Shown here: one piece after another, positions 1,201-37,850 of the stretch | Numbering within the stretch: position 1 is the first letter of the stretch | Layout of the letters: the number at the start of each line of letters is the position of its first letter | NCBI GenBank assembly: GCA_000934665.2 | Contig: JYFJ02003613.1 | Coordinates: 1 to 39,944, forward strand | Direction: 5' to 3' | Origin: Catajapyx aquilonaris | Taxonomy: Eukaryota | Length of the DNA stretch: 39,944 nucleotides | Made by a program: the position numbers and the translations under genes | The notes under the pieces: generated by a model | Told to the model about the DNA's origin: nothing | Seen by the model: the letters and a program-made list of their open reading frames with translations, nothing else | Database searches by the model: none

Positions 1201-1235
1201 ATCAGCTGATGAAAGTGAGTACATTGTCTTATTAC

Positions 1236-4200
1236 CCAATTATGGCCACGGCCGGTTCTGTCAGAAGTGGTACCGTGAGCGTGTGGGTATTGTCCGACGG
1301 GTTCAGGTCCTCCGTGGCCGACGTGACGTTCAGGTTCATCGTGAACTGTTTCGTGCCAGGTAGCACCTTGGACACGTCGACTTTCAGGGATATGGACACG
1401 TTGTGCTTGGCGGAGAGTGAGTTGGACACCCGGCATCGCAGGACACCGTTGGTCTCCTGGCACAGTCCGGGCAAGCTTCCGAACGATGCGGACGCAGACA
1501 TGTACAGATCCACGCCAGACGCGTCTTCGCCCAGGTTCATCGTAGTCACCAGGACCTCGAAGGTACCTGGCGTACCAAGCACCCAGCCGGACGCGTTCAC
1601 AAAGGCTTTAGCCACGACTTGCAGGTCCGCCGTACACACACCGTTGTCGTCCGAGTCGCATCGTGGCAGGAAGGGCAGCTCGAGCTTTGCGACGCCTCCG
1701 TCCGGTGCCGACACTGCTGCCGACGTCGAAGTTTCTCTCGACATGTCCTCCTCGCACGTTGGTGGTGGTCCTCTCGATTTATTGGGTACCCTCAGAGTCA
1801 GAGTCATCGACACCGGAAGACTAGAGTCGGTCGTGTTGGTCTTGACGGAGATCCGGTACGACTTGCACTTTAGCTGATTAATGTCCAGTTTGTGACTGAT
1901 CGGTACGGAGCTGGCGTCGTCGTGCTCGGACACTCCTAGGATGGTCAGTCGGGGCTGTGCTACCATCACGTCCACTCGAAGACAGCCGTGAATAGCTGTA
2001 AGTACCGGTATACCCTATTAGCTACCTGGTAATGGCATTACTAATAATGTGACCTCTGACATACCCATACTGCTAGACAGGTACTTCCCGGAGTACAACA
2101 TGCACGCGTCCACTTGGAAGGTCGTGACGTTGAATAGGACGCGTGACACAGACGCGTTCAAGTACGGCGTCAACACAGCCACAGGTCTCGACTTCAGGAT
2201 GACCGCATCTCCGGACAGGTACGCTCCGACAGCCAGGTCCGGATACATGTTCCCATCGACGTCTCCGGACGCCAACGACGCTCCAAAACCACGGACGGTC
2301 GGACCTGCGACTGCAGATCCCAACACACGCTGAGACGCACGTTGTCTGACCCCCTTGGAGTGTCCGTGGTATATGTACACTGCACCGGCATTGTCCTCGA
2401 AAGGTGCTCCTACCGCCACGTCGTCGTACCCATCGCCGTTGATATCCCCGACGCCAATGACACAACTGCCGAATCTGGCTCCGGGTGACCTGCTGCCCAC
2501 CAGTGACCTGACCTCATCCAGCTGGCCGTTACCTTTACTCAGATACACATACACCCTCCCTTCGTCCCCGTTTTGAAGCGCGTGCATCGGGGCTCCAACA
2601 AACACGTCGTCGAGTCCGTCCTTGTTGACATCCACGGCTGCCACGGCTGACCCGAAGCCCTCGCCCAGCTGTGACCCGACCCTCTGCAGTCGCCAGGTCA
2701 TCCGTTCGTTCCACCGTTCTCCGCTGGGGAACTGAAAGCCCAGGATTCGGCCCCTGAGTGCGGCTGCTCTGGGCGCCCCCAGAATGAACAGGACTGATGT
2801 TGAAGACAGGACTTGACCTGAGGTCATCGAGTAACCTGTAAGGAATGTTAGGTTAGGTTGGGAGCACGGTTTCTACACCCCCTTAGTGACGTGTGGAGCA
2901 ATATTCATGCGCGCGCAGGCTTGCCCCGCCCATTCGGAGGAGAGTACGTGCGCGCGCAAGGTAATCTCCACCCCTTAGTGACCTATGGAGCAGGATTCAT
3001 GCGCACACAGGCGTCCTCCACCCATTGGGAGGATAGTACGTGCGTATAGGTAAGCTCCACCCCTTAGTGACGTTCGGAGCAATATTCATGCGCGCGCAGG
3101 CTATTCCCGCCCATTGGGAGGAGAATACGTGCGCGCGCAATAAGTTATGTGGTTCAACCCTTAGTGACGTGTGCAGCAGGATTCCTGCGCACGCACCACC
3201 TATTGGGAGGAGAGTACATGCGTGCGCAAGGTAGGCTCCACTCCTTACAGTGACGTGCGGAGCAAAATTCCTGCGCGCTCACGCTTGCCCGCCCATTGGG
3301 AGTACGTGCGCGAGCAATAAAGTTACATGGTCCACCCCTTAGTGATGTGTGGAGCAAAATTCCTGCGCGCGCAGGCTTGCCCCTCCTATTGGGATGAGAA
3401 TACGTGCGCGCGCAAATAGATACGGTATATGGTCCACCCCTTAGTGAGAAGGATTCCTTCGCACGCAGGTTTGTTCCACACATTGGAGGGAGAGGACGTG
3501 CTCGCGCAAGGTATGCTCCACCGCGGCAAATGGTTCGCTCCGTCCATTGGGAGGAGAGTGTGCTTGCGCAAGGTGTGCTGCTCCACCCCTTAGTGACGTG
3601 TGGAGTATGATATCTGCGCGCGGGGGCTTGCTCCATCCATTGGAAGGAGAGTACGTGCGTGCGCAAGGCAGCCCCACCCCCCAAAGTGACGTGTGCAGCA
3701 GAATTCATGCGCGCGCAGGCTTGCTCCGCCCATTGGGAGGAAAGTATGTGCGCGCGCAAGTTTGCTCCACCTAAGTGTAAGTGATTCGTAATTTACCGGC
3801 TAAATTTGACGCCTCCCAGTTTGGAGGGGTGTGCGGAGGCTTTACTGCCCTGACAGACCTCGGCGCTGGAAGTGCCACACCAGCGAAGTGCAGGTACCTG
3901 ATCGCCGTACCTGAAAGACAATGGTCATTATTTTGGTACAGTATACAGTGAAGATTATATGACCTTACCTGACCAATCGTACACCCCAGGTGCGCCCAGA
4001 ACCAGCTGGCTTCCGTCCTGTGAACATGAATCGTACTATATTGGCATCATACTTCCAGGATTGGCTACATGTAGAGTTAAGCTCCACCCATCGATCCCGC
4101 CCACTTTAGGTTTCAATTTTTGACATTTTATATTAGCATCTTGCTTACAGTTGGGCATATTATCATATTTGCCAGAGGAAGTTAAGCTCCGCCCATTCTC

Positions 4201-10139: not shown

Positions 10140-10410
10140 TAAACAGTTATTGATTATTTATCAGTTGTCGGTTATTTACTAGTTAGTATTAGTTGGTTAT
10201 TGTATCGGTTATTTATTAGTCAGTATTAGTAGGTTATTGTATCGGTTATTTATTAGTCAGTATTAGTAGGTTATTGTATCGGTTATTTATTAGTTAGTTA
10301 TTGTAATAACTAATAAATAGCCGACAACTCTAGTTGTCAGTTTTTTATTAGTTATTATAATTAGTTTTTGTATCGGTTATTTATTAGTTATTAGTTAGGG
10401 GTTATTTATT
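10140..10410. repeat. AT-rich tandem repeat, ~37 bp unit (gttatttattagtcagtattagtaggttattgtatcg)
   Basis: Three or more near-identical consecutive copies plus degenerate flanks. Confidence 0.85.
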
Positions 10411-10485
10411 ATTCGGTTCCAAGCCATTTCCAGCAAGAGCGGGACCCTGTACACCGGTTCCACCTTCCATGAAGTGGTTACCCCC

Positions 10486-10499
10486 TACTACTACTACTT

Positions 10500-10572
<73 letters not shown>

Positions 10573-10644
10573 CACCACCACCACCACCACCACCATTAGC
10601 TCTTGCTGCTGCTGCTGCTACTACTACTACTACTACTACTGCTG

Positions 10645-10685
<41 letters not shown>

Positions 10686-10693
10686 GCTGCTAC
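10486..10693. repeat. Compound trinucleotide microsatellite (CTA)n(CCA)n..(CTG)n(CTA)n
   Basis: Direct reading. Confidence 0.97.
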
Positions 10694-10823
10694 TCAACAC
10701 ACATGAATATTATTGAGAGCACATAATTGCTATAAATAGTACAGATGATAGAGACGGATAGAGATGAGGTGCGCATGACATGCAGCCATGTGCTTATCTA
10801 GGAAGAGCGACAAGAGCAAGGGA

Positions 10824-11521: not shown

Positions 11522-14500
11522 TCAGACGAATATGAACTCCGGATGCGAGTCGGCTGCGCATGGGCATTCCTCCCCGTGTCGCTGCGCATCTTCCCCTTCG
11601 CTGTTGTGCGCAGGCACGCGCGTCCACTTGCCGTGGCACGTCGGTTGGCGCAGGCTCACCCAGCGCGATCGCGTCTCGAAGTCGCCCTCGCCCTCGCAAC
11701 GGAAAGACAGGTGTCGCCTCTGGGCCTCGGTCTCGCAGCGGATGCACACCGTGGCACCTGGAACGTATGGGGAATATGGGATGAAATCTTATGGGGAGTA
11801 TGGGATGAAATCTTATGGGGAATATGGGACGAAATCAGTGAATATGGGAGATGAACATGGGGAATATGGGACGTAATCATATGGAGAGTATGTATATGGT
11901 AATCATTGTGAATATGGGAGGAAATCATATGTGGAATATGAGAGGAAATCATTATAGGGAAATGTGGTTTGAAATATGAAAAAGTCTGGTGAACTATGGG
12001 CAAAAATATGGGAAAATATGGGATGTAGTGATGTAAGGAATGTTGAAGATAAAGATGCGAAGAATATGTGAAGAAATCATGTGAAATTTTGTATGAAATC
12101 TTACGAGAAATTTGGGAGGTAAACATATGGGGTATATACGGGCAATGATATAGTAAACTTATGGCCAATATAAGGAGAATGTGCGGTGCACATAAGACTA
12201 TAAATATGGGAGGAGCATACAGCATATACGGTATATGGGCACATACCTTGCCGTAGATTCTCATACTGAGGGAGTTCTGCACAAGCTTTGGTCGCCTTCA
12301 GAACCTCAAACTGGACGCAGTAACTGTAACCATAGAACCCTGCTGTTACTGACCGGACTGATGTATAGTTGCAGCCACACTTACTCTTTGCTCCTCTCCT
12401 TCTCTGGGTCCTTGGGGTACCTGAGCCTCAAGTTGTTCCTGATATCATTGGTCGCGTTGATTCGTCTCAGCGGACTGAAGCTGGCAGGCAACAGAAGAGC
12501 CGCCTCTGGAAAGTATCAACTGAATGTAAAAGTGGGCGGAGCATAGGTGGACACTGGGCGGAGCATAATCTCAAGGGTGTATTCGAGTGCCCATTACAGA
12601 TGCGTTCGTATCAGCACCTCTTGTGACGCGTCATCTGCTGCTTTACTATATATACTGCAGTTGGTTTGTTTGTGCTTTTCCGAAGACGAAGGGGTTGCCA
12701 GCTGACGCAAAACGGGTTCAAGAACATGGCCAGAGAAGACTCTTTGTATTTTTAGCCCCAGACCGAGCGTGTGCACATGTGGCCATCAATCCGAGGCCAA
12801 CGAGCCAAGAGGGGTGTAAACAAGGCGGTGCACCCGGTTCAAGGGTGCCAGATAAAGGAATGCGACAACACTTGCTCGATCCCTTAAGACTAATCAGGAA
12901 GCGTGTCACCAAGATAAAAAGGATCAATGTCTCAAAAAGAAAGATGCAAGTTGGCAACACTGCATTCAACGGAGATCGAAAATTGGCAACACTGCAGTCA
13001 GATCAACCAATCACAGCCAGGGTTGTGCATGAGTCAAAATCTGGCAACATTGCTGCCAGCCAATCAGAACAGGCAGTTTTGACGCGAAAATGGACCAATC
13101 AGCAGCCGGCTATTTTCTTTGCAAATTGGCAACATTGCATTAGTGGCAACGCAATAATCAAAATGATTAAATAACCGGCATGTAATTACAATGATTAAAA
13201 TAATTGCAAATTATATTAAAAAGCTCTTTTAACCAATCACACCCAGGGGGCGTGGTCCATTTTCATATGAACCAATAAGAGCCGCCTGAAGCAGTGTTGC
13301 CAACTTGCCCAGTGTTGCCAGCTTCGTTCAGTGCTGCCAACATGATCAGTGTTGCCACGTCCTTACCCCTTGCGGCGATCCGGTTGGGTCGAGGGCACAG
13401 TTGACCCTGGCAGGCCCGCTCCTGCACCAGTGGAGGGCAAGGTTGACCTCCGTTGGCCGAGGGTCGAAGGGCGGTCCGTAGCCTCTGTTGGACACCGGGG
13501 CCGCAGTCGGAGCTGCATCGAGACCAAGGACCCCAGTCCGACACTTGGCAGTCAGTCACTGGAGTAAATTAATTTGCGAGGTCAAACTTTGGGAGGGGTC
13601 AACGGTCAAGATAAGGATGATTAAAGAGAAGGTCAGATACGACACCGGAAGACGCAGGGCAAGATGGTTCGCCCCAGCAATAACACGTTTTAAGCAACAC
13701 TATTTTGCTAATCGCCAATTAAAATTGACGGCCAGAATGCACTAACCAAACAGTTAACTAACGGCCAGTTAAAATCAACCAATTGGGCCCGCCCCCGGAA
13801 AGCCAGCAAGTCAAGTGACCAGATTAACTCCTAACGGTCGGTTAAAATGAACCCATCAGAATAGGCCCCGCCCCCTGCCCAAGCCAGCCAATTCGAGCAC
13901 GTCATGTGATAGCTTTGGCCAATCGCGGCCAGCTCCGACCAATTAGAGCTCGTCACGTGACCAGATTAACTGCTAACGGCCAGTTAAAATCAGCAACCGA
14001 TCATAATTGGCTGCTGGCCGCGCCCCCTGCCCGAACCAACTAATCCGAGCAATAAGTCACGTGATTAGCTCCAGATTACATCTTAACGGCCAGTTAAATC
14101 AAATTATCATAATTGGCTCCGTACCCGCATGAACCAGCCAATCAGAGCAAGTCACATGATCAGATCCAACCAATCCGAGCAAGTAATGTGACTATAGATG
14201 AACTCAAAATGAACCAATCATAACTGTCCCCGCCCCCGCCCGCCCGAACCAGTCAATTCGAGCTCGTCACGTGACAAGATCCGATCAATCAGAGCAAGTC
14301 ACGTGATCATATTAACTTCTAACGGTCGGTTAAAATGAACCACTCGTAATTGGCCCCGCCCCCTGCCTCAGCCAGCCAATCCGAGCTCGTCACGTGACAA
14401 GCGCTGACCAATCACAGCAAGTCACGTGATCACATGTACTTCTAACGGTCGGTTAAAATGAACCAATCGTAATTGGCCCCGCCCCCTGCCTCAGTCAGCC

Positions 14501-15114
14501 AATCCGAGCTCGTCACGTGACAATCGCTGACCAATCACAGCAAGTCACGTGATCGTATTAACTTCTAACGGTCGGTTAAAATGAACCAATCGTAATAGGC
14601 CCCGCCCCCTGCCTCATCCAGCCAATACGAGCGTGTCACGTGACTGGCTCCACCCAATCCGAACTCGTCACGTGACTGGATCCGACCAATCAGAGCAAGC
14701 CACGTGATCAGCTCATAATTGGCCCCGCCCCCACCCGAATCATCCAATCAGAGTAGGTCACGTGATAGCTCCGACCAATCAGAGCAATTCACGTGATCAG
14801 CTCATAATTGGCCCCGCCCCCACCCGAATCATCCAATCAGAGTAGGTCACGTGATAGCTCCGACCAATGAGAGCTCCCTCCAACTGACCTCCGCAGGCCT
14901 CCTGGAAGTCCGCGCAGCAGTCCCCGACCTGCATGCAGTCATGGTCACAGTAGCAGGGAGGGACGAAGGCACCTCGAGGGTCAGAGGTCAACACGACGCA
15001 GGTGGGGTCACGGCCCTGGCAGCACAACCCGGCCGAGCGACACCCGGACGCCGACGCCGAGGACGCCGCGGCCAACAGGAGGAGGAGGAGACAGCTGCAG
15101 AGAGCAAGAGACAT
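11522..15114 (-). CDS. SBSPON: Somatomedin-B and thrombospondin type-1 domain-containing secreted protein (RPE-spondin-like), 283 aa
   Basis: Exons 15114-14889, 13558-13367, 12505-12385, 12323-12247, 11757-11522 splice in frame (852 nt). Signal peptide, SMB domain (CCQGRD..CYCDHDCMQVGDCCADFQEAC), spondin-type TSP1 (DCQVSDWGPWSRCS..R.R..NGGQPCP), YCVQF..VCIRCE..C-terminal FIFV. Confidence 0.92.
11765..12240. repeat. Intronic degenerate ~24-bp repeat (atggggaatatgggatgaaatctt)
   Basis: Three clean copies next to the last SBSPON exon, decaying across the intron. Confidence 0.8.
13750..14880. repeat. Intronic minisatellite, ~123 bp unit, built from CCAAT, TCACGTGA, GGCCCCGCCCC and TAACGG motifs
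   Basis: ttctaacggtcggttaaaatgaacc recurs at ~14317, 14440, 14563. An 89-bp tandem duplication lies at ~14700-14870. Confidence 0.92.
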
Positions 15115-15394
15115 GGTGTCGAACTGAATGGCTTCTGCTCCGGATGCCTTGCTTTTATTATGAGGAGGCTAGGGAAGAACCTTTTCTTTGTGGTGGGGCC
15201 CCGGCCTTGCCACCAGGGAACTTGGGTGGGGGAAAAGGAAGGAGGGCTCTGCAGCTCCTACCCCCACTGACTAAGCATAAATCAAGACCTCCCTCCCTCC
15301 CTCAAAGGCCCTTGACCCATCATCATCGCTCCCTTGACTAATTTTAACCCTCACTCTCACACTGCATCGGGGAGGCCCTGAAACACGTGCCTTA

Positions 15395-15725: not shown

Positions 15726-15864
15726 ACCAACTGGTGCGGTCACCCAAAAGCCATACAGATACAACAACAAATTGCTTAAACGCCGCCCTGGAGCGCAGAA
15801 ATTAATTTCCGCATTTCCTTTTCCAGGATCAGACGTTTAATTGTGCCATTATTGCACCCTAAAG

Positions 15865-16480
15865 ATGTGGGTTGCCACACGTGCCTAAGGAAAATGTGGG
15901 TTGCCATACATGTCCAAGGAAGTGGGTTGCCGCATGTGTCTAAGGGAGTCGTGGGTTGCCATACGTGTCTAAGGAAGACATGGGTTGCCATACATGTCTG
16001 GAAATGTGGGTTCCCTCACATGACTAAGGAAGTTGTGGGTTGCCACACGTGTCTAAAGATGTGTTGGGATATGTCTACAGAAGATGTGAGTTTCCGCACT
16101 GGACATATCTAAGGAAGATGTGGGTTGCCATACGTGTCTAGGGAAGATGTGAGTTGCTGTATCTAGGGAATATGTGGGTTGCCATACGTGTCTAAGGAAG
16201 TGGGTTGCCACATGTGTCGAAGGGAGTCGTGGGTTGCCATACATGTCTGGAAATGTCTAAGGAAGATGCGGGTTGCCATACGTGTCTAAGGAAGTGGGTT
16301 GCCACATGTGTCGAAGGGAGTTGTGGGTTGCCATACGTGTCTGGAAATGTCTAAGGAAGATGTGGGTTGCCATACGTGTCTAAGGAAGATGTGGGTTGCC
16401 ATACGTGTCTAAGGAAGATGTGTTTCTGTGTCTAGGGAATATGTGGGTTGCCATGTATCTAAGGAAGTACGTTGCCAGAC
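15865..16480. repeat. Minisatellite, ~29 bp unit (gtgggttgccatacgtgtctaaggaagat)
   Basis: About 20 variably spaced copies between the SBSPON 5' region and the zinc-finger gene 3' end. Confidence 0.93.
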
Positions 16481-16579: not shown

Positions 16580-17152
16580 TATTTCATAATACTTCAGGAA
16601 TGGTAACAAAAAAAATTGGGATGAAACATAGCCACATATGTTTACACGCCGGGTACGTACTTCACGCCCCCAGTCACGAACTTCCCCGTCCCAGTCACGA
16701 GTGGCAATGCGTCCAAATCAGGTGCATTCACGCTATTACAACAAGGTTACAGTCCGAACAAGACCAGACTCCAACCGAGCGCGAACACACCTGACGCCTA
16801 AACACTATATTGCTCCTTTGATTATATGAATACAAAAATTAGTCTTTTAACAATTATCATTATAGTACATAGAGTGACAAGAGACTGGACTGTGCGACAT
16901 CCAGGGTCAAGACTTGGGAAGAAAATACTCGCAATAAGCGGCCCAATGACCGAATTAGAAACGATCATCGGAAATGTCCTGCTTACCAAGAAAATGAAAA
17001 ACCATTGTTGTGCCCCCCCGTCCTCACCCCAACAATCACAGCCTCAGTGCCTCAGTCACAACAAATCCATTTTTCGCCGACACCAGTCCTTCAATAAATC
17101 ACAGTCCAATAAATGCAAAGAAAAAAAAAAAATTGGTGCCAGGAAGGCAACA

Positions 17153-20100
17153 CTATAAATAAATCTGGCTCCTCCTCAGCAACGCTCTTGTTCGCTCACT
17201 CGCATGAATGCGAATGTCGTTAACCAGAACTCGTGGGTCCAATCCGTTCGGCATCATCGAAACCATTGCTGCCACGCTCACTTGCACATCGACGCCACCG
17301 ACGGACACCACAGTCTTGATCCTCTGGAGGTCGTCAACTGGCGGACTACACCCGTAGTGACTCACATACTCAGTCTTTCTGTACGCCATGATTCGAGGCA
17401 ACCGAGTCGTGGACTTCCTGGCGACAAATCTAGCCGTTGCCCGGCTGGTCGTGGACTTCCGGGCAACCTGACGATGCACGACGGGCCAGCGTGGCTCTTC
17501 CTGTACCGGCTCCTGCGTGGGCTCCGCTACGACTTTCACCTGGTATTCGACCCCGACATGCGAGATCTTAAAGTGCCGGTGTTGTACCGCCACACTTCGA
17601 GACCTGTATCCGCACACAGCGCACTCGACAAGCGCACGGATGACCTTAGCCCGCTTCAGCACAGCACCACCCGGCGACATCGACTTGCGCTTACGAGGCG
17701 CAACATCCGTTGAGCTCGACACCTGTGGACGAACCTGATTTAAAAAGGAGTTCCTCCAAAGTGTACGGTACAGTACCTTGTTGTCCGCAACTGGAGGGTT
17801 CTTCGCCTTTCCGCCTTTCTGCTTGTTCCGCAACGGCCGGATGTCGGGGCTGCTCGGCATCGGCTTGCTGACCACGCTGATGTCGCGATCCGGATGTGTC
17901 CGCAGCGAGTGCTTTCGGACCTCATAGTCTCGGACAGCCTCATAGTCGCAGTGTCCGCATCGAAACGGCTTCTGAAGCCAGTGGCGCATCTCATGCCGAC
18001 GAAGCTCCCCGGCGTTACGGTTACTGTACTCGCAATGTGAGCATCTGCAAAAAGTGGGGTTAGTCACCGAGCTTTTAACGTACACGGAGGTCATACCTGT
18101 GCATGGCGGGGTCATGTTTCTCCTCCACTTCCCCGATATCTGCAGCTTCGTTCTCCTCCGTAACCTCCACTCGGCTCCTCCCCGGCTTCAGCCCCTGAGT
18201 GTGTCTAGTCGGCTCGAAGTTCAACCTCGCCGCTTCCTGCATAGTCATCATGAACGGCTTCCAGTACATCGGCTCTAGCGCCGGTGCGTTATCGTTAATC
18301 AAAACCAATTGCGGCTGGTCCGAATGCTGCTTCCGCTGATGGGACTGCAGCATATTTTGGTTGTTGCATGACTGATGGCAGTATCCGCACCTCCATTTGC
18401 CCTGTTGGAGATGGGCCACCCGGACGTGGACTTTCAATCCGGGAAGGGCACGGACGCAGACTCCGCACTCGCGGCATATCAGGCGGTCGCTCGGATCTGG
18501 AAAAGCAGCGGTTTTAATTACATGTCAAAATTAACGTACTTGAAGTTACTAACCTTTGTACAATTTGCCTTTGGTCTCGGATGACTCTTCTTCCGCTTCC
18601 GCTTCATCTTCCTCCATCACTTCCTGCTTAACGACCACCTTTTCCGGTTCGTCTTCTTCCGGTTTGCCAATTCGCCACTCTTCAATCTCCTGCGCTTGAG
18701 TCGACAGAACTAGTGCTACCCAATCCTCAATCCCTCTGTCCGGCCGTAGCGGCGCCAAAGCCTCTCGTTTTCCCTCTTTCTTCGTATGCATCTGCCGAGA
18801 AAACGTTGGCGTCACGCTTCATCCGAGTACGACTTTGTTTACACTCATTGCGACTTACCTTGAACGAGTGCTTCTGCAGATGATTCTGACATGACGACAT
18901 GAGTCCGCAGTGAGTGCATACCCACTTCTTGTAGTTCAACTCTCGGTACAGATGATCCCGCATGTCTCGCTGGGTCTTGGTGATGTAGTGGTTGCATTTC
19001 GGACACACGTACGAAAGCTGGAAAGCGTGGCCCAATGGACCGAAAGACTTTTCCTGAAGGTCCGAGTCCATCTTTTCCTCTTCCTCGTCGTCCTCTCTCG
19101 GCTGCTGTTTGATGACGGGTTTGAAGTTCCGCATGAGCTCCTCCTGCTCCATTTCCTCAAGCTCAGCCTCGTCCGGCCAAGGTTCGTCGTCTGAATCGCC
19201 CAACGTTCCACCGTCCACGACCGGCTGCGATTCATCCAGAAGAATCCCGCGGATGTGAATTATCCTGTTGGGATCCCGTCTCCACAGCGGCCTTGTCGCA
19301 GGGTTTTCCCCGATGATCCCTTCCTCCACTTTCACCACCGTGGATACTCCTGGTACGGCAGCCGCGGACTCGTCCATCTCCTGATACCCGTACATCAGCA
19401 CAATGTGTCTCGGCAGATTCGCATGATTATCCTGGTGGTGCTTCGTTAGTGCGGAGTCCGACTTCGGGCTTCCCCTGGCAGGGCACAAGGCGCACTTGAA
19501 CTGCGCTCTCATTCCGTGGACCATTCCAGCGTGGGCCTCGGCTGCAGTGCGGGTCAAGGAGCCGAACTTGCAGAGGCAGCAACGCCAAGGTTTGAATCCC
19601 AAGTCCACATCCGCACCTTCGAAAAACAAAACGTTTAATACCGAAGCTTGTAATCCTAGGTTAAATACAACTGCGGCCAAGACACACATAAGCCGCAATT
19701 AAACTTTCACGCTCTACACACATGAACATTCAATGGTAGACATGGAATGCCCCAAACTCATCGGCTTAACCTTGGCAACAGCATTCAAGTTGAGTTCGGT
19801 TATACCTGAACATACAGCCTCCAGTACAACGCAAGTACGACTTGTTACCGAGCCGCTAAAATGTATATTAAATGCGGCCATGAATTTAAAGAGTTAACGA
19901 CGATTACGTAGCTGTCCGATGACTCCTTAAATCAGGCTGTGTTTACTTGTGATCGATTCGTTCAGCAATTGTTTGGGAGCGAAATGCGATTGCTACTTTT
20001 GGTTCACTAATACCCGAACGTACAGCCGTTCGTACGACGCAATTGGGACTCGGTACTGATCTAACACGATTGCCGCAAAAATGTCGATTGAATGCGGCCA

Positions 20101-23100
20101 CATGCGGTTTGGGAGCAAAATGCGATTGGTCTCATCGAATCGCTCGCAAGTAAACGCAGCCTTCATACCGCCATAACTCTGTAATGCAAAATGAGGATCA
20201 AATCGAAAGACGTCTATCCGAAGGAAGGAAAGTGCGGCACAATGTTACAATAATAGATCAGGTGTTTTTTCCCCTGCAGAAGCGGTGCGGACTAACCTCC
20301 AGTTAATCCAGCTCCGTCGCTGCCCCCGTCGGCCCCACCCATTCCCCCCTGGGGCACCCCTTCCTCGTGCACCTCCCGCAGGACCCTCTCCAGCGGCTTG
20401 TCCCCGGGATGCTTGTCTATCAGATGCCTCTCAACCACCGCCTGCCTCCAGTGCAGATAAGGGCAGTGTCCGCACCCGTACAGATGCGGACCGTGCAGCT
20501 TCAAGTGGGCCCCCAGACGCTCCGGAGTGGGCAGAGGCTCCTCTTCGGGGCAGTGCGGACAGGCAAAGTGGGGGAGGTCCGAGTGGAGTGCGCGCAGGTG
20601 GTGCTTGAAGATCGTCTCGTCCAGGGTCATGTAGCTGCACCCTGGTTGGGTTCAACATGTGTGTGAGGGGTGTGATATCTACTGCTAAGTGTGACGGAAA
20701 AGCTCCACACACACAATAATGAACCTGACAAGTCAGGCTTCGACAACACTATTGGAATGAAACATCGAAAAAAAAAATACGGAGGGGGTTAGTCACTTGA
20801 TACTGTAGCGTACGACAGACTTCAGCTGGACATTTCAGGACTTCAGTCGGACATTAAGGACTTCAGCGGGACTTTAAGGACTTTAGTCGGACATTAAGGA
20901 CTTCAGCTGGATTTTCAGGACTTCAGCTGGACATTTAAGGACTTCAGCCGGACTTTCAGGACTTCAGTGGGACTTTAAGGACTTCAGCGGGACTTTAAGG
21001 ACTTTAGTCGGACATTAAGGACTTCAGCTGGATTTTCAGGACTTCAGCTGGACATTTAAGGACTTCAGCCGGACTTTCAGGACTTCAGTGGGACTTTAAG
21101 GACTNAAACTTTCAGGACTTCCGTTGGACTTTTATGGACTTCAGCTGGACTTTAAGGACTTCAGCTGGACATTAAGGACTTCAAGAACTTCAAACGGACT
21201 TCAACCTCGCGAAGGACTTCGTAAGTGACTAACCCCCTCGGAAAATACACACATGCACACATGGTACAAGGGAAGCAACAAAGACCAAGATAATCTAACT
21301 ACTTCTACAGTGCATAGGACGGGAAGCAGCCGAAGGAATGGGAAATCTAAAAACAGTCTGCAGTGTTCACCGCAGACCTGAAAAAGCAGGATTTTACCGT
21401 TATTAACGCCAAGGTAAATAAAAAAAAATCACATCGAATGCAATGTTGCCATGGGCCATGCGAATCTGTACAGCCCAAATGTTAGTCCGTTAAATAAACA
21501 TGCGGTCCATAGTAATTCCCGAGGCGTACCGTGCATTCCATATCTCCCTTATTACCGCATGTTACCTTCCGATGCAAACTCACCTGTCACGCCGCATACC
21601 AGCCGTTCTTTCAGTGACACGAATTTAGGGACGGCTCCGGGCTCAAGCTGTGCCAACTGCGGCTGGAGGTTGGAGCTGGCTGCCAGGTTCGTCATCTTGT
21701 CGAACATACGCTCACTCCGCTCTAGACAAGGAACCGGGTTGACTGGGGCTACTTCCGAGGGATGCTGCGCCGCCTCTGGATCCGCCAAGTGAATGCTCAG
21801 ATGGCGGAGAAGGTTGCTGCGGACCTTGTTTCTGTATGAGCATAGCCCGCACTTCAAGGGGCGAAGGTATACAGCTTGCGGAGGAAGCAACGATGCGTCC
21901 GACGGCAGGAAAGTGTCACGAGGTTGCTTCGGTGCGTCCGGGTCGTCCGGAGGTCCGAATATGTTAAACCCTTTACGGGACATTAATTCCTTCGGGAGAA
22001 CCACAAACTCTTCTTGTTCCGGATCGTTCGATAGCGGATCAACCTGAAATTCATCGCGTTAGATTCGTCACATTGCAAGGTCAGGGTAAAGCGTACCTGT
22101 ATGATCTTCGTAGATCCGACCCTGTGCGCTTGTCGTATATGCCTGACCGCATGTTGCTGCAACGGACAACGGTGCAAACACAGGCTGCATCTGTACCGTT
22201 TCCATCCGTGTGCCCGCAAATGATCGATTAGCCCTTGCACTTGTTTGAACGCCTTGGGACAGTGCGGACAAGGAAGCGGGTTGGGCATGGTCGGTTGCTT
22301 CTCGCACACTAAAAGGTGGTCACGTAGCAATGAGGACGAGTCGAACGAGTACCCACAGCCTGGGTTTCCGCAGCGATACAAGGTCGCACCCGTCAAACCT
22401 TGGGAAAAATTGAATAAATCGCATGTTCGTACTACAAAACTTGTTACGACAGTACCTGAAACGCAAGCATTTTCGCTTGCTCTGTACGGCTCCTCGACTG
22501 GACAGTACAGCTCATCCTCGGGTGGTTGCGCCGGTTCGTTATTGCCACTTGCGACGGGAACCTGTTCGCTGGCAGTCTGATCCGTTACGCTACTACTTTC
22601 GCTGCTTGCTTCCTGACTATCGGTCCTGTCCGGTTGACTCTCGCTTTGGTCCATGCTACTATCGACAGTCATCTGAGTCGATGAAACGTCAACCGTCGAC
22701 CGACCCTCTGAAACGTCAATCGTCGACCGACCCTCTGACACATCAATCGTCGACGGACCCTCTGAAACATCAATCGTTGACTGGCTCGCTGAAACATCAA
22801 TAGTCGTTTGACTTGCTGTGACTTCAACGCTTCCGAGATCCGCCGCACTTTCTTTGTCCGCAGCTTCGTTTTCAGCCGTTTTGTTGCTAGCTACGGGCGG
22901 ATCGCTGCTTTCCTGTGCACTGATGGCCGCTTCCTCGTCATCGTCGTCCAGTACTATCACCTCGTTATTCTGTCCGCTAGACACTAACGGACCAAGCGGA
23001 ACCGGGACAGGACGGCCCAGTCTGATCCCCCGATCTTGTCCCGACCGTACGACCTCCGCAGTAGTCGTAGCCTTCGCCCCGTCGACCTGCCCTCGAACCA

Positions 23101-26100
23101 ACACCTTCCCGGACCGATTCGGATGAGCATTACAAAGGTGCAGCAGGATTTGGTTGTGCGAATCTGATCCGTGCAGACAGTACGAGCATTGGTACTGGTA
23201 TATCCCATGGTTCTTGTAATGCTGTCGATAAAATTTTCCCTCCGATTAGTTACACGCATGCCATCACTTTCGCCTTCATTTACCTGTATCAGATGTTCGG
23301 ATTTGAAGCTCACGTTGCTGCAAATAGAGCACTTGTAGATACGAGATTCGGGGTGTTCCTTGCTCAAATGATGCTTAAACGCTTCGGGATCGACTGCTCT
23401 GAACTGACATTCGCCTGTAAATAATTCGGATTGTAACGTGCTGCCATTTTTATCAGAAAAATCAGTACGCTCGATAGTCGTCAACAATGGTTGCTACGGT
23501 TGTGAAAAACCGAGGGTCCAATTAAATTTTTGTCGGTTTTAACAATGAATTTCCGTAGCAACCGTTTGTTGACGACTATGGAACGTTTCTCTGAAAGTAA
23601 AAGCGTCTCACCTTGTTTGCATAGGAAAGGCAGCACAACGTCGCCCAATCCGAGGGTGGGCCTTGATTCCTCTTCAGACGGTACGATGGGCAGGATGGGC
23701 ACGTTTATGTAGCAGCCTCGTCTGCTTGCCGCGGACGCGTGTCTCTGCTCCTGGTGCAGGTACATGTAGCTTTGGGTCGCACTGCGGTAGAAGCAGTTGC
23801 AGCACTGGAATGTGGAACGGCCGTGCTCCCAAACGATGTGCTCTAACAAGTCGTCTACGGCTGGAGCGGCGTGCATACAGTAGCTGCATCGGAGGTACTC
23901 TCTGCGGATGTTAATTAACTCGTTAGAAAATGCTGTGTGAGACTAATTAATTAAATTAATTATAGCGCGTCTAACACGTTAGAAAATGCTGCGTAAGACT
24001 AAGTAATTAAATTAATTAGAGTGGGTCGTTAAGACTCGTAACGTCATGTGGTACTCACCTCTTCCCGTCCAATCTCTCCCACAACTTGTCCGCATGTGTC
24101 GTCCCTTCCTTAGCGTCCGTAGCGTGCCTTTGAAGCAAATGGGTCTTGAACATTTCCCGGCTGTCCGTAGTCGCACTGCAATCGCGGGACATACACTTGA
24201 ACAAGTGCCGAAGCTTGTTCAGTTTGCACATCCGGTTGAACACTTCGGCTGGCTTAGTAGACAACGGCCAGCCAGGCGACGGTTGGAGAGTTGTAGCGAT
24301 TGGCGAGTTGCTGGAGGTAACAGATGCGGTCGCTCGGATCAGGACGACTGGAGGAAGGTTCGATCCGGGAAGCAAAACTGGAGCAAGGACAGGCTGTTGC
24401 GGCAAAGTCGCCGGAGCCTGAGAGGACAACGTTAGTCGATTCAACCGGTACGCGAAAAGGTTCGAACTTACGAGCGTCGCCGTGTCGACAGTGGACGCCT
24501 CGGGGTTCAGACTGACGACACTACTAATCTGCAAGGACATGGATCCGCCATCTTCATCGTCATCATCATTCCAGTCGATTAGGCCTGGTGAAATAAACCC
24601 GGATAAGTACACACGCCTCGGGAGAAACCCGCAATTCAAACTTACCATCCCATTCGGCTGGAGTGTCGTCACTCAGATTGACCACCTCCTTATGTTCGCT
24701 CAGCTTGTCGCCGCTTAGACGTCTGACTTGTAGGAATTTCGGGATTTCAGGATTCGAGATTCCCTTCTTCTCGTCCTCGGCTGTTGGGAGTTCAAATGGC
24801 GTCTGCAACGATCCGGTCAGCTTGGCGATTGTGCCGTGCAGTTGGCTCCAGCTTCTCTCTCGCTTAATCCGCTCCTCTTCCGGTTCAGGCTCGTCTATTT
24901 CAAGCGGAGGTTCGTCGTCTTGTTCCGACGGGGCGTCCGATTCCGAGTCGGTCATTAGCGAATCGGATGTTGACGATTCGTATTCGGACGATTCATCCTC
25001 GGAAAGACCTAGAAATAAATCGGAGCCTACTTTAGCGTACTGTGAGTTCGCAATTGTTTTAAAAAGCTTACTGGCGGCGTCGTCCGGTTCCTTTTCCGGC
25101 TCGGGATTCACCGCGTCTGGCGCAGTTTCCGTTGGTTCTTCCGGCACCTCCTCTTCGTCCATCGGCTCCTCTTTAACCATGGCCAGATCGGCCAGCCTTT
25201 GACTAATTCCATCCAACACTTCGGCCACACTTTGTCGTGGCTTCAAACCACGAGCCAACTCGCTTCCCAGCCGCACCCGTTCCTCCACAAGCTCGATCTC
25301 GTTTTGGGTCGGATCAATTTGGGTCAAAAATGCGGAGGGATCGGTGTCCGCGCTGCGTCTTATCCAACGTCCCTGTGGCGGTTCGGAAACTGGCTTTTTT
25401 GGGACATCAACTTTGATAGGCTCCGGTTCCGGCTCCGGCTCAGGCAGAGTCGACTCGCTTCGAAGCACAGATATCAATGTAATTTCAGCAGACGTGTGAT
25501 GAACCTCGATGTGCGCTTGAACCCTGCTGCGGCACAGTTGATAGAAGCGGCATTCATTACACATGTATACCGTCCCATCGAAAGCATCGAAATCTTCATC
25601 GTCGAGCGTCGCCACGATGTTCGCCTCGCCTTTATGACGCCTCACACGGTGGTGAGTTATCATCGAGGGCTTCCATCCACGGTATGAGCATGATCCGCAC
25701 TTGTACCTGAAAAATTCACGGTTTTAAAATAAAATTACTTGAGCGATGATACGATGCGATGTAAACGAGGCAGATCAACGTACCTGTATTCGCCGGTATG
25801 CCACGTCATATGTTCGTACATCAGCTCCTTCGAGTCAATCGGATCTCCACACAGCGCGCAGTACGAGGGCCAACTAATGTCCGTCTCATCCGCCGGGTCG
25901 ATCTCCTTCAAATGCTTCTCCGCCCTCACCGGAATCTCCACGCCCGGATGGGTCTGAACGTAATGTTGTACCAACGCCTTTCGCGAAGAGAATGGACACA
26001 TGTGGCATCGGAGCGAATCTGGGAAGTATTCGCCGCGATATTTGCGGCGACGGCCGACGGGAAATGCGCCTGTTTGTGTTCCCGGCGTCTTCTTCTTCTG

Positions 26101-29100
26101 CGGGACGATCCGCTTCCGACGACGACGTTTCCGAGGCTGAGACATCAGCGACTTTGGAGTCGATGCGTTCGACATCGTTGTGTTGATCGAGTCGTCATCA
26201 CCGTCAACGTCGATGTCCATCGCATCACGAGAATCCTCCGCAAATCTGTAAACATCAGTGGGTCATTAATCTACCCGCAACATAACGACTAACGACTTAC
26301 CCGTCGTCATCGTGGTGTGCGTCGTCCTCTTCGTCATCCTCGGATGCCACTTTAGATCCCGTCTCTTGGCTCGATTCAGGTTTGGACTCCTCAGCCGCAG
26401 ATTCAATCGGAGCATCAACTTCCGCCGTTTCCATCAGCTGGGGCTGTTCCACTACCGGCTCCTGAACCCGCTCCATTTGCCGTGCGCACCGTCTGGTAGC
26501 CAACACCTTCTTATCATCATACCCGATTTCCTTCAGGTCGGCATGAAGCCGTTCAAGTGACGAGCGTCGTTTGATCTGTCGCTTCTGAACCGGATTCGCA
26601 GCCGATTCATCTTCAGACTCGGATGAAACTCTTCTGGTAGGTGCCGCCTTTAGTAGATCAAACGGATCTGTCGGTTTAGATGCATCAGTCTTTTTAACTC
26701 TAGATCTGCCTCGTCTGGATGCGGCCATTCGTTCAACGAGAGTCATCTCCGACTCGCTGTCCGTGGTTTCTGCCAATTTCCTCAGCGCCACTTTGGGCGA
26801 AAATGACTTCTTCTTAGCCAACCTTTCTGCCAGAGATAAGTTGGATTCGCTATCCGATTCAGACTTGGCCGTAGCGATTTTCTCAGAGGCTGAATCGGAC
26901 TTGGGGTGCTTTGTGTCCGGATCTGACTTAGTCTTTTCCTGCTTCTTGTCCGTCTTTTGAGGTGATTTGTCCTTAGTTTGCGCTTCCAACTCGGAATCGC
27001 TTTCGGGCAGTATAAGCCTATGTTTCTTGTCCTTTGTCGCTTTCTTAGACCTGGTTTTCAACTCGTCCGATTCATCCGAACTGTCCTTTCCTTTCCGTTT
27101 CGATGGCGACTCTGTGCTGCTGTCCTTTCGTTTTGATGGCGATTCTGTGCTGCTGTCCTTTCGTTTGGAGATTCGATCGGCACTTTTACGTCTTCGTCTC
27201 GCCCTGTCCGAATCACTAGAGCTGTCCCGCTTTGACTTCGATTTGTCCCGCTTCCTTCTGCGGTCACTGTCCGAGTCGCTACGTTGCTTCCGCCGCTTAT
27301 GATCATCCGAGTCCGAACCCCTCTTTGATTTATCCCGTCTTCGACTGTCCGAGTCCGACTCCGAATCCGAACTAGAATCCGATTCGCTATCGGACACCAT
27401 CCTGTTCTTCCTCTTAGTCTTCCGTTTCTTACTCTTCTTACTTCCGGAGTTATCGCGAATACTGCTAATCAGCTCTTTGAACAAATCGGCCAAGTCTCCC
27501 TTCTTGGTGTCCTTTCCAAGCAATGCGGACAAGTCTGATTCGAGTGACGACTCTGCTGGTGGTTCACTCTGCGGTTGCGGCGGTGACGGCTCAGGTTGCG
27601 GTACAGGAAGCGGCGGAGCTTCTCCCTTTTTAATCTTTGGGATTTTAAACTTCTGAAGCCCGTAACCTTTCCCGGTTTGGGTATCCGCGGATTTGACGTC
27701 GTAAAGCGAGTCGAGCGGGGACTTAATGTTGGACTGCGGCTGAAGCGGTGGTGGTCTGAACCCCTTTCCGAACCCCTTTCCTGAATGAATCGCATCCCGC
27801 TGTGCACGCAAACGTGCTTCAGCCTTCTTCCTTTCATCGTGTCGTTCCTTCCGCATCATTGCCTTGCTCTGGAAGTTTAAAAAAAACGTTAGTTTCATTG
27901 CGAACTGCCTTAGTCGAATTAAATCCCATTTGCAGAACTTACTCTATGGTTGTCCTGCTTTGTTTGTAGCTTGTTAACATGATATGGCTTTTGCGGCTCT
28001 TTCTGCGGCGCCTGTGGACCCGCCCTGTGTGTCGGGCGTTGATCTGGAACTCTCGGTTCCTCTCGTCTCATGTCCGTCCCTCTTCCCTCGTTCTTATGCG
28101 GCCTGGGGTCGTGAATAGGAGGCTTTCCAGCTGCGAACGGCTGCTCCCATGGCTTCTGGTTCATCCCAAACGAGGTGGACGGCCTGGTTATGAGCGGCTT
28201 TCGGACTGTCAGTTGCGGCAAAGGCGGCGGAAGAGGTCGTGGCTTCCATTGCGAGGGACCAGGCTGCTGGTGAACCACAGGCTGCTGGTGAAGCATCGGC
28301 TGCGGTTGGAGCATCGGCTGCGGTTGTAGCATCGGCTGCGGTTGTAGCATCGGCGGCTGGTTGATCAGCTGCGGACGCTGTTGTTGGAAGATCATCTGAG
28401 GCTTCGGTGGCATTATCGGCGGCTTCTGTTGCATTATCAGCGGCTGGTTGAAACGTGGTTGGCGACCCTACAATTTTTCACAAACAAAAAGTTGACATTG
28501 TGACTTTCACCAAACAAACAGTTACGTACTATTGATGTGACGACTCCGATTGGTTGGTGTTGCTGTGGCGGAGTTGGATGCCTCGGTGGTGTCTGATATG
28601 CTGGCCTGTAGTGAGCCACGTCCGTCTCAATCAGCGGCACTATGCCTTTCGGTTGAGATATCGGCAAGATCGGCTGTGATGGCGGCGGAACCGGAGTCGG
28701 AGTTGACGTGAGATGAACCGGAATTGGTCGTCCTAATGGTGGAGGATGAGTCGGGGAAGGATGGGAACTGGTGCTAGAAGCTGGCGAGTTCCATGGGCCG
28801 CCTCGGGGACTGTTTTTATGTAAAAATGGCGGCGGAGACATGGTTGACATCTGCAAACAAAAGTTGTTAACGATTGAAGTTCCTGTAAACGCAACTGACT
28901 AACCTCCTTCGGATCGCTGTTTCGCCTGAGACGCGGATCTCTCGATTCGCCTCCAGCAGTGTGCGGCAAATTACGTGGATCCGGCATGTTACGTGGATCC
29001 GGCATATTGCGAGGATCCGGTAAATTGCGCGGATCCCGCACTCTCGGATCCCGACATGGCACTGCGGCCACATTTCCCGCTGCCATCCGTCCCATACGAT

Positions 29101-32100
29101 GTATCTCCATCACGTCCTCCTTCAGCCGCGACTTAACGCCTTTCTTGTCAGCGTCAGACTGTCTGGACTCCTCCTCATTCTTGGTCCATTCCTGCATCAG
29201 ATCGTTGAGGTCAGTGTCCGACAGCGGCGGACCCGAGAGCCGACTCCGCATTCTAGCCAAATCCAGCGTAATCTCCTCTCTGTCCGGGACATGCGAATCA
29301 GGTCCCAGCAGCGGAATTTGCGGGGAGTCTTCATTCACAAGCGGAATTTGCGGGCTGTCGTATGATACCGATGGGGATGAACCTTCCGAATCTGTGTGGC
29401 CCATCAGCTTCTTCAGCTTCTCCAGGCCGTGCTTTAAGATCGTGCCTTTGGGTTCCCCCGAGTGGGTCGAGTTGTGCTCATTCTCGGGCCGAACCGCGAC
29501 CTTCAGACGCTGGAGAGTATGTTGGAGCATCGAGGTGTCAGGCGACGAATGCCGGAAGAGATCGTTCTCCAGGTTGTGGTTCAGCATCTTGCTCATCACC
29601 TGCGGACAACAAATTCAAAGCCCCTTCACTAGTCGAACGGCATGAAAATGGAGCTGGATTTAAGCCAACTGAAGCTACCGTCAATTGTTCGAAATTATTA
29701 CTCAAACATCTCGGGCAGGTATGTTTTCTAATGTAAACTTGTGCACCAGAATTATCAAAATATCCGTCCGTACCTGTATTGGCTTTAGACCAACAGGTGG
29801 CCTTTCCACATTCGATCCCATCCTTAGATCGGCCCTAGGTGGCGGCGGCGGCGGCTGCTGCTGCTGCTGCGGTGGCGGTGGTTTAGACGTGGGTCCATAG
29901 CCAAAAGACGCCTCGGTCGGAATAATCATGGGCTGCTTCACCCTCGGGTCAAACCGAGCCGCATTGAACTTGTGCTCAGGGCTGGGGCTCCTCGGAGTCG
30001 GGCTTGCTGGCTTTTCCGCAGGTGGCATCTCTTCGTCGTCGTCTCGAAGCTCTCCTTCCTCCGGGCTGTCCACGTAGGACCTTGAATGCACCGCGGAAAG
30101 TTGGGGAGGCTTCTTAAGGGTGGGAACGGGTCTAGACAACTGTTTGTCAGACTCGGGCTTGTAAATGTTAACTTTGGGGGCTTCGGGCTCGGAAAACGCT
30201 CTTGGTGGTGGGCTGCATGAAGCGTGAGGAACGCAGAGAAGCAAAAGACAAAGCACAAAAATAAATAAGCACAAAAATAAATAAAAAATTATAAAAATAA
30301 ATAGGAATAAAAACAAATAATCCCTTCGAAGGAATAAACATAAAAGCCAAATGTGACGAGCAAGGATAATTAGTAGCATGCAGGATTTAAAAGCACATGA
30401 GACATATCCTTTAAAAAAAAGTACTCAAGTAAATGTACATGCAATTATCGACACCACATACCCTAATTAATTACAACTCATGACCATATTTATGCGGAGG
30501 AAAATACTACTAACAAAAAAGGTCGTACATACACTAAGAAGTGTAATTATAGACCCAAATTATTTAAAATTGAGGCCATTAATATGCTAATTTATTTTAG
30601 GGCTTCATTATTTTTAACGAACTGAACTATACATCAGGTCTGCCGTTTTGTGATTAAGATTAATTAGTACACTTACAGTTGCCTTGTTTTTGGTACTCTG
30701 TCGCCCAACTTTTGCGACTTAACGGCAAACGAGAGGCCTCCTTTTGATGCTCCCGAAGCTGCGTTTCTACTCCCAGATCGATCTCCCAAGTTGCCGTCAT
30801 TCGGCTGCAATATAAAGTAAAATTACACATATCACGTTCACAGTTATTACCTGATTCATGCAGTATTTTTTTTCTCTATAATCTAAAAATATCAACTTAC
30901 GCCATTAACCTTCTCGTACAGCTTCAGTAATACTTCCTCGCAGCGATAGAGGGTCGCAATCTTCAACCTGAAATCAACAAGGCCGTATCTTTTTTATAGT
31001 CGGCACATCATGACCTTCCCTCACAAAAATATTATCATTTCCTTATCTTCATATGCTTTGTTTACCAGTAATGCCAACAAATGTTATAAACAGGCCGAAC
31101 TTAGAATAAGTACTTTATGTGCTGCTATGGCGAGCCTTATGGACTCGGCCCGTTCAAAATGTAATCTTCTGGCCGAGGAATTTTCAAGTGTACTTCTGTC
31201 ACATGTGACGGACACAGTAAATATTATGTTGTGCGCTTCTATGTAATTGAAGGCTAATCGATTTTTTTTTTTTGCCAAACCCACTTTTTGTTAGGGTCGG
31301 CTAGTATGTCGTAGAGGGACTTCATCTTTTTCAGCTGAGCGTCCCTGCTGTGATCTTTGGCCTTCTGGAGCTTGTTAATCATGTCCTCGAGGAAGGGCAT
31401 GAACTTCTTCATCTCCTTCAGCTTGTCTTGGTAACGAGCCTCCTCCGACATGGCAGGTTTGGCAGAGACAGATGACGAAGAGGACGTCCCCCCGCCATCT
31501 AGAGAGTGAAAGGCTCCGTGATATAAAAAGGAATACATAGCAACGCAGAAATTCATTTACAGTGTACGACCTGAGGTACCGCATAAAATAACTGAACCAA
31601 ATAATGAAATATTACGTAAACAGGAGGAAACGATTACATTCATTATTCGCAAATAACCAGCTTTTTAACTAAATTGAAATAAAGAGCAAATGAACTATTT
31701 ACACAAATTGAAATAAATAGTACTTGGCTACATAAATTGAAAAAGCAATTACATTGAAATAAAGAGCAATTAGCTACCTACATGAATTGAAAGCAAGAGC
31801 AACTAGCTATTTAAATCAAGAGCGATTAGCTATTATCAAATTATTACTTGCTACTGTAATTAGGAAATAAATAGCAATCAGCAAATATTCAAAATTGACA
31901 TTATAAGCTGAGTATATGAAGGCAAATATATTGTATTATTAAAAATCTGACATTTAACGAACCTGGGAAATTAAAAGTAATTAAGAGTTAATGAAACTGA
32001 CACAAAAAAAATGTAGTGAAGCGTATTTAAAATTGACAATATTCTTAAACATTATCAGTCGAGTATTACGAGGGAATAATTTTACAAAATGACACTTAAC

Positions 32101-37790: not shown

Positions 37791-37850
37791 TTCGACCACA
37801 ATTGCTACATTTTAATAAGTTGACTAATTGCTGCCTTACTAATTTGCAGG

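Follow-up and report, generated by a model that had tools for sequence, protein, structure and literature searches.

The stretch of DNA analysed here, contig JYFJ02003613.1 of Catajapyx aquilonaris (assembly GCA_000934665.2), is 39,944 nucleotides (nt) long and is called the window throughout. Its minus strand carries a giant C2H2 zinc-finger gene (coding span 17153..31451), the last coding exon of which encodes two copies of the heptapeptide VARKSTT in the C-terminal tail of the protein. As far as sequence comparison goes, these tail motifs suggest a protein that may receive and display marks in the way a histone does. Only a handful of non-histone proteins are established as histone mimics, mostly the writers of histone H3 lysine 9 (H3K9) methylation themselves. 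Small ovary (Sov) is a scaffold that in flies connects recognition guided by piRNAs with HP1a heterochromatin.

Results and Discussion

The sole public run with this stretch is X1, the kind of which is not stated; because eight joints in its contigs have CT..AC ends on the plus strand and hence GT..AG ends when read on the minus strand, we take it to be RNA-derived. With these eight RNA-supported introns fixed, GT..AG dynamic programming led to a model of 23 exons and 3,730 aa, in which the remaining introns are predicted and the small predicted exons at 31195-31114, 30875-30677, 20213-20024 and 19855-19722 are doubtful. Using tblastn, five insect orthologues (4,300-5,350 aa) were found to be collinear with the gene on the minus strand, from 31463/31284, where insect residues ~5-70 match, down to 17204, where the insect C-termini end. 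The C2H2 patterns of the model, 24 in all, begin at residue 1475 and extend to residue 3575, with none ahead of them, which bears out the giant zinc-finger gene proposed in a first-pass annotation of the window made from the letters alone. The region 26297-30424 (minus strand) is without a Pfam match, consistent with a long disordered region.

The last coding exon (17153..18044, minus strand, with the stop codon at 17153-17155) is delimited by its open frame and by the joint 18044/18097 in the X1 contigs, which fixes its acceptor. One X1 contig of 866 nt runs from 16648 to 17513 without a break and covers both motifs, the stop codon and at least 500 nt of the 3' untranslated region (UTR), which accordingly extends at least over 16648..17152 (minus strand). 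The motif-bearing last exon is expressed, and the joint together with the unbroken contig confirms that both motifs belong to the last coding exon, as had been proposed. A possible GTGAGT donor at ~17366 within the tail was discarded, as the RNA contig reads through it.

The minus-strand open frame 17153..18187 translates to ...VVHRQVARKSTTSRATARFVARKSTTRLPRIMAYRK..., with VARKSTT occurring twice, and the interval 17405..17467 given for the motifs in the first-pass annotation brackets both copies exactly. Copy 1, (Q)VARKSTT, is located at 17447..17467 on the minus strand (ARKST 17450-17464, Lys codon 17456-17458) and copy 2, (F)VARKSTT followed by RLP, at 17405..17425 on the same strand (ARKST 17408-17422, Lys codon 17414-17416), which corresponds to a spacing of 14 residues or 42 nt. 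As the two lysines lie 100 and 86 residues ahead of the stop, the motifs are part of the C-terminal tail but do not form its very end. Their description in the first-pass annotation as nearly identical to the H3 tail QTARKSTGG went too far, since copy 1 (QVARKSTTS) agrees at 6/9 and copy 2 (FVARKSTTR) at 5/9 positions and the likeness consists of the ARKST core plus the Gln. When the whole window is translated in six frames (~79,900 residues), ARKST is found twice, both times at 17405-17467, and the 3,730-aa gene model also contains it twice, where 0.005 copies are expected from composition; a chance origin of the motif pair is therefore excluded. Antisense to the last exon, a 184-aa open frame at 17159-17713 (plus strand) is read as a by-product of the opposite coding frame and not as a gene.

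To describe the conservation of the pair we compiled a family set of 50 sequences. With the last exon as query, an exhaustive HMMER search gave 2,171 proteins at E <= 0.001, mostly via zinc fingers; ARK[ST] is present in 17 of the 150 proteins listed among these matches, and 9 of those 17 have the whole C-terminal arrangement of the window in common (the relatives found by HMMER include P0017, P0020, P0036, P0065, P0067, P0095, P0128 and P0135). Two word-seeded searches with the C-terminal regions of giant members, an orthopteran query with 21 matches and a lepidopteran one with 22, added 40 insect proteins from Anabrus simplex (Orthoptera), 14 named hymenopteran species, 19 named lepidopteran species and 4 further entries, so that the set consists of the window, 9 HMMER representatives and these 40 proteins. 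The order was looked up for one species each of Orthoptera, Hymenoptera and Lepidoptera, and the remaining assignments go by the source names. Because several rows are isoforms of one gene, the 50 sequences do not stand for 50 independent lineages. Most of the proteins are labelled 'uncharacterized protein' and one 'ZN507 protein, partial'. A search with the last exon for longer relatives gave none at E <= 0.001, and a PDB sequence search with the same exon gave only generic fingers such as those of CTCF.

When the last 200 residues of the 50 sequences are aligned, 49 of them show two A[RK]K[SH][TF] motifs, which lie 10-24 residues apart, and P0020 has one. Counting from the central lysine, copy 1 has Val (38) or Thr (5) at -3, Ala (50) at -2, Arg (38) or Lys (12) at -1, Lys itself in all 50, Ser in 49 and Thr at +2 in 50 sequences; the corresponding numbers for copy 2 are Val 36 and Thr 7, Ala 50, Arg 37 and Lys 12, Lys 49, Ser 50 and Thr 47, and copy 2 is followed by a Leu kept in 34/42 and a Pro kept in 45/49. 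The columns flanking the motifs are highly variable. Ten columns in the last ~140 aligned positions are kept in at least 49/50 sequences, and seven of these are in the two motifs, the other three being Ser and Tyr of an SxYG element and a proline close to the C-terminal end; the mean column identity in a tail alignment of 25 sequences (A1) is 24%. Thus the ARKST motif, with A, K, S and T near-invariant between variable flanks, is under purifying selection, and the conservation that the first-pass annotation had asked for in otherwise divergent C-termini is there. Within the tail no element is better conserved than the pair, and this holds for a whole family of giant zinc-finger proteins of arthropods.

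These data also decide whether the pair could be due to chance or to a tandem duplication that is recent and neutral, an idea suggested by the DNA of the two copies, which forms a 20-nt direct repeat with 90% identity at a distance of 42 nt. The low number of copies expected per protein speaks against it, the three differences between the 21 nt coding for each VARKSTT are all synonymous, and the presence of both copies in 49/50 sequences, from at least three insect orders besides the window, refutes it, which leaves this explanation practically without a chance of being right. Since the two copies are kept so widely, the motif pair is old and constrained and not a recent duplication in the lineage of the window.

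Related motifs were seen outside this family set. In the zinc-finger proteins P0005 (1,387 aa) and P0038 (1,282 aa), TARKST(A) is not located in a C-terminal tail but immediately ahead of two conserved fingers, in P0005 even twice in a row (TARKSTATARKS), and H3K9-like motifs may perhaps be more widespread among ZNF462-like finger proteins. P0025 (2,676 aa) contains VARKSL and KARKSS ~20 residues apart and ~120 residues from its end, with no recognisable SxYG / PxVxV tail, and is either a distant member or a protein with a mispredicted last exon.

To take a look at the remaining tail, it was modelled with AlphaFold2 (25-sequence alignment, mean pLDDT 72.7). Tail residues 1-60 are predicted to be coil with block pLDDT values of 54-72, and with the ARKST copies at residues 22-26 and 36-40 both motifs would be located in an accessible, unstructured segment. 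They are followed by an acidic, variable spacer and the element [FYV]-S-[YH]-Y-G (SHYG in the window, 17351..17362, minus strand), with its S present in 49/50, its Y in 50/50 and its G in 44/50 sequences, and S56 and Y58 being invariant in A1. Further downstream the model predicts a mini-domain made of a beta-hairpin and a helix (17255..17329, minus strand; strands 71-76 and 79-84, helix 85-91), the block pLDDT values being 82, 96 and 93 over tail residues 61-90. A Foldseek comparison of the tail model with the PDB gave no match at E <= 0.001, and an ESM Atlas search with the 124-aa tail gave no usable match. The tail then contains P-x-V-x-V-x-D-I-R (PRVLVNDIR, 17210..17236, minus strand), which is coil in the model and has the family form P-x-V-x-[VL]-x-D-[IL]-[KR], with Pro in 49/50 sequences, V39/I7/L4 and V32/L12/I6 at the two hydrophobic positions and Asp in 38/50. 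The pattern PxVx[LVIM] occurs six times in the gene model against ~3 by a rough estimate from typical residue frequencies, and we give weight only to the conserved C-terminal one. By its form this conserved P-x-V-x-[VL] is a candidate chromoshadow-binding motif, PxVxL being the pentamer that binds the HP1 chromoshadow domain (PMC3022755). At 17153-17209 (minus strand) the window protein is ~18 residues longer than most orthologues (…IHASERTRALLRRSQIYL); these residues are modelled as a helix (tail residues 105-122) and look like a lineage-specific extension.

The opposite end of the protein helps to place the family. The first coding exon (31285..31451, minus strand), starting with MSEEARYQ, encodes an N-terminal Med15-like helical domain that passes the Pfam model PF21538 Med15_M (E 1.2e-8; 35.5 bits, cutoff 24.2) and matches Med15 in the PDB (8j9a, E 2.4e-9), and the insect orthologues have the same Pfam Med15_M domain at their N-termini. 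A profile built from 13 family N-termini (A2) finds Med15 structures in the PDB at ~1e-14 and, as its best match other than Med15, 7mkk_B 'Small ovary, isoform A' at a marginal E-value of 0.027; this match spans chain residues 6-75, which is the whole length of the chain, and the alignment has the stretch K-x-x-E-x-x-K-[YF]-[IV]-P-F-[LI] in common. For Drosophila Sov, a preprint describes the N-terminal domain (NTD, aa 14-90) as a three-helix bundle with clear likeness to the Med15 domain (10.1101/2021.07.27.453956). Sov (CG14438) is 3,313 aa long; its residues 114-1483 form an intrinsically disordered region, and its C-terminal half holds 21 fingers. According to a 2026 preprint (bioRxiv 10.64898/2026.08.12.744517) the short C-terminal region 3200-3313 of Sov has conserved stretches and the protein binds HP1a directly via five PxVxL-type sites. 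One of these, HBS5, is stated there to lie within the last ~150 residues and to belong to the part lost in sov2, an allele lacking the last 152 residues. As the gene of the window has a Med15-like N-terminus with the 7mkk_B match and the same overall layout, a half free of fingers up to residue 1475 and then the 24 patterns, it is probably a member of the Sov family. The likeness between the tail PRVLV and HBS5 is one of motif type only.

One finger in the last coding exon passes the Pfam model for the seventh finger of ZNF462 (PF23225, E 2.2e-8; 34.1 bits, cutoff 27; 17885..17971, minus strand, residues 25-53 of the frame 17156-18043), and two more fingers stay below the cutoff. An ESM Atlas feature search with P0067 gave generic zinc-finger clusters, the first of which is a chordate 'chromosome alignment-maintaining phosphoprotein 1' with 0.96, a lead only. 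The protein of this name, CHAMP1, is an HP1-binding zinc-finger protein, which we likewise note as a lead only.

For the motif pair itself we favour the reading that both VARKSTT copies are conserved short linear motifs that mimic H3K9 and, once methylated, would dock HP1-type chromodomains, and we put its probability at roughly 0.5. In such a mechanism an H3K9 methyltransferase of the SetDB1/Eggless or G9a type would methylate both motif lysines, the methylated motifs would dock HP1-class chromodomains and the P-x-V-x-[VL] ~60 residues downstream would hold the chromoshadow dimer of HP1, so that a single tail could grip an HP1 dimer through several contacts, which Ser/Thr phosphorylation could release again as a phospho-switch. 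A separate writer would be needed, since Pfam found no SET domain in the zinc-finger scaffold. Here we infer the Sov family identity, the methylation, the HP1 binding and the cooperation with the PxVxL-type motif alike.

Besides the conservation, the predicted coil, the tandem and Lys precedents in SETDB1/SetDB1 and the likeness to the HP1a binder Sov, the reading gains support from the binding rules of the chromodomains. According to a peptide-array study (PMC3013012), the Cbx3 chromodomain has the consensus (Q/N)(T/V)A(R/I/F/W/V)Kme3(S/T), HP1-class chromodomains tolerate only Thr or Val ahead of ARKS, and residues C-terminal of the motif contribute little. Both copies of the window read VARKST, copy 1 (QVARKS) fits all six positions of the Cbx3 consensus, and within the family Val or Thr precedes the Ala in 43/50 sequences for each copy. 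For the core [TV]A[RIFWV]K[ST] the numbers are 31/49 sequences in copy 1, 34/49 in copy 2 and 44/49 in at least one copy. The interpretation given in the first-pass annotation is supported in part, namely by the conservation, the residue ahead of the Ala, the nature of the gene and the Sov-like context.

Several points weigh against the mimic reading. Only 2/49 sequences for copy 1 and 3/49 for copy 2 show the full six-residue consensus with Gln or Asn at -4, and the Arg at -1 is replaced by Lys, which is outside the Cbx3 array consensus, in 12/50 sequences per copy, with the lepidopteran proteins P0185 and P0187 having Lys at -1 in both copies. In addition, the near-invariant Thr at +2 (50/50 and 47/50) is not accounted for by the chromodomain arrays. 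ADNP, which contains ARKS plus PGVLL, gives a discouraging precedent, as no methylation was detected and the methylated peptide showed no HP1 binding (PMC3022755). The link to Sov consists of a marginal E-value for the NTD and of architecture, and in the text of the 2026 Sov preprint (bioRxiv 10.64898/2026.08.12.744517), as far as it was available, the terms ARKS, mimic and chromodomain are absent. Moreover, there was no dipteran sequence among the matches of the two C-terminal searches (21 and 22), due to either limited sensitivity or real absence, and fly Sov may lack the motifs.

As the arrays assign little contribution to residues behind the motif, the invariant Thr at +2 means that something besides a chromodomain constrains the sequence, which points to a requirement of a writer or a kinase. 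This leads to the main rival, in which the motifs are phosphorylation sites of basophilic kinases, or docking sites that depend on phosphorylation, and the tail is regulated with no lysine methylation involved. Kinases of the Aurora B type accept a Ser with R/K at -2 and -1, as in H3S10, those of the PKA/AGC type a Thr with R/K at -3 and -2, and FHA-type readers recognise T-x-x-L. This rival would explain the Thr that the arrays leave unexplained and fits the near-invariance of both Ser (49-50/50) and Thr (47-50/50), the free interchange of Arg and Lys at -1, as if charge alone mattered, and the Leu at +5 of copy 2 (34/42), with which a T-x-x-L could serve an FHA-type reader. It does not explain the Ala at -2 (50/50 in both copies) and the Val or Thr at -3 (43/50 each), which are requirements of a chromodomain and not of a kinase, nor the invariance of the central Lys (50/50 and 49/50), in place of which an Arg would suit a kinase just as well, and we consider this rival rather unlikely.

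A close variant of the mimic idea is that the motifs act as substrate-like baits in the active site of an H3K9 methyltransferase, a demethylase or an H3S10 kinase and thereby recruit or restrain the enzyme, instead of offering a platform to a chromodomain reader. The sequence evidence for it is the same as for mimicry, G9a methylates ARKT/ARKS peptides of several partners with H3-like kinetics (PMC2175347), Sov co-purifies with Egg/SetDB1, and a C-terminal fragment of ZFP462 pulls down G9A/GLP/WIZ and HP1. The Val or Thr at -3, however, matches the rule of the reader and no known rule of a writer, and baiting appears improbable to us. Even less can be said for a mere basic patch with a generic role as nuclear localisation signal (NLS), nucleic-acid contact or condensate 'sticker', in which the H3 likeness would be incidental. 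A terminal NLS has been predicted in Sov, Sov(3200-3313), which is rich in Ser and Arg, forms droplets, and KR/RK precedes the lepidopteran copies; but the copies of the window are surrounded by few basic residues, and a generic role would give no reason for Ala, Ser and Thr to stay the same at set positions of both copies, which makes such a patch very unlikely.

Returning to the mimic reading, one may go a step further and regard the last ~100 residues as a module matched to the HP1 dimer, with the two mimics occupying its two chromodomains and the PxVxL-type motif its chromoshadow groove. Such a clamp would hold the HP1 dimer without a nucleosome and could be switched on and off by a writer (SetDB1 or G9a) and a Ser/Thr kinase. 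This version is doubtful, and if true it would drive or dissolve heterochromatin condensates, would explain the importance of the C-terminal tail of Sov (sov2 allele) and would be conserved between the organism of the window and at least three insect orders.

The surroundings of the gene are as follows. Just downstream of its 3' UTR two arrays of tandem repeats are located at 14205-14874 and 15859-16467, one having units of 123/246 nt rich in CCAAT and CACGTG boxes and the other units of 29/55/94 nt. Neighbouring genes encode an integrin alpha chain with FG-GAP repeats and Integrin_A_Ig_2 according to Pfam (1232-2872, minus strand), a secreted protein with a somatomedin-B domain (14797-15168, minus strand) and a glutaredoxin (37824-38189, plus strand). 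An open frame with long runs of Thr and of Tyr/Cys at 10388-10726 (plus strand) is a simple-sequence tract and not evidently coding.

Conclusion

In summary, on the favoured reading the pair belongs to a known kind of element, the histone-mimic short linear motifs read by chromodomains. In the literature searched on ZNF462, Sov, HP1 and histone mimics we found no paper describing H3K9-like motifs in Sov or in this family, and neither the carrier family nor conserved twin motifs beside a PxVxL-type motif are described there. If the mimic reading is true, a contact between methyl-lysine and chromodomain would add a regulated second mode of HP1a binding to the chromoshadow/PxVxL contacts of Sov. 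With Drosophila Sov the protein of the window shares the Med15-like NTD, the ~1,400 residues before the fingers, the number of C2H2 fingers (~21-24) and a short, conserved C-terminal tail with a site, in the window a candidate one, of PxVxL type, as judged from a sequence comparison limited to the NTD and from layout, whereas the HP1a contacts of Sov in the literature searched are all of the chromoshadow/PxVxL kind. Vertebrate ZNF462/ZFP462 is likewise a giant protein with scattered C2H2 fingers, and its seventh-finger model fits one finger here; as ZFP462 is described by its authors as vertebrate-specific, orthology is not claimed for the gene of the window.

Among the known mimics, ADNP is also a zinc-finger protein that pairs ARKS with a PxVxL-type chromoshadow motif (PMC3022755), but its ARKS is inside a folded homeodomain and contributes little, whereas the motifs of the window are duplicated, lie in predicted coil and have Val/Thr at -3. 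G9a, GLP and mAM (ATF7IP) have the ARK(S/T) core in common with the protein of the window: G9a acts on their ARKT motifs as efficiently as on H3, methylated G9a binds HP1 (PMC2175347), and methylation of ATF7IP is reported to recruit MPP8 (PMC6172828). Their motifs are single and N-terminal, in contrast to two copies and a PxVxL-type motif in a C-terminal tail. SETDB1/SetDB1 also has several short H3K9-like motifs in disordered regions with an A-x-K-S-T core. According to the array study, the SET insertion of SETDB1 contains three consecutive AxKST sites, and methylation at several of them makes the peptide bind more tightly (PMC3013012); the SETDB1 string RQVAVKST resembles RQVARKST of the window. 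The first motif of SetDB1 (HMM1, with K-K) has Lys instead of Arg at -1, is automethylated and binds HP1 only when trimethylated (10.1101/2025.01.21.634156), and in both sources chromodomains read the motifs only if they are methylated (PMC3013012; 10.1101/2025.01.21.634156). The difference is in the carrier, as SETDB1 is itself a methyltransferase that methylates its own motifs, whereas the carrier in the window is a zinc-finger scaffold known here from its sequence.

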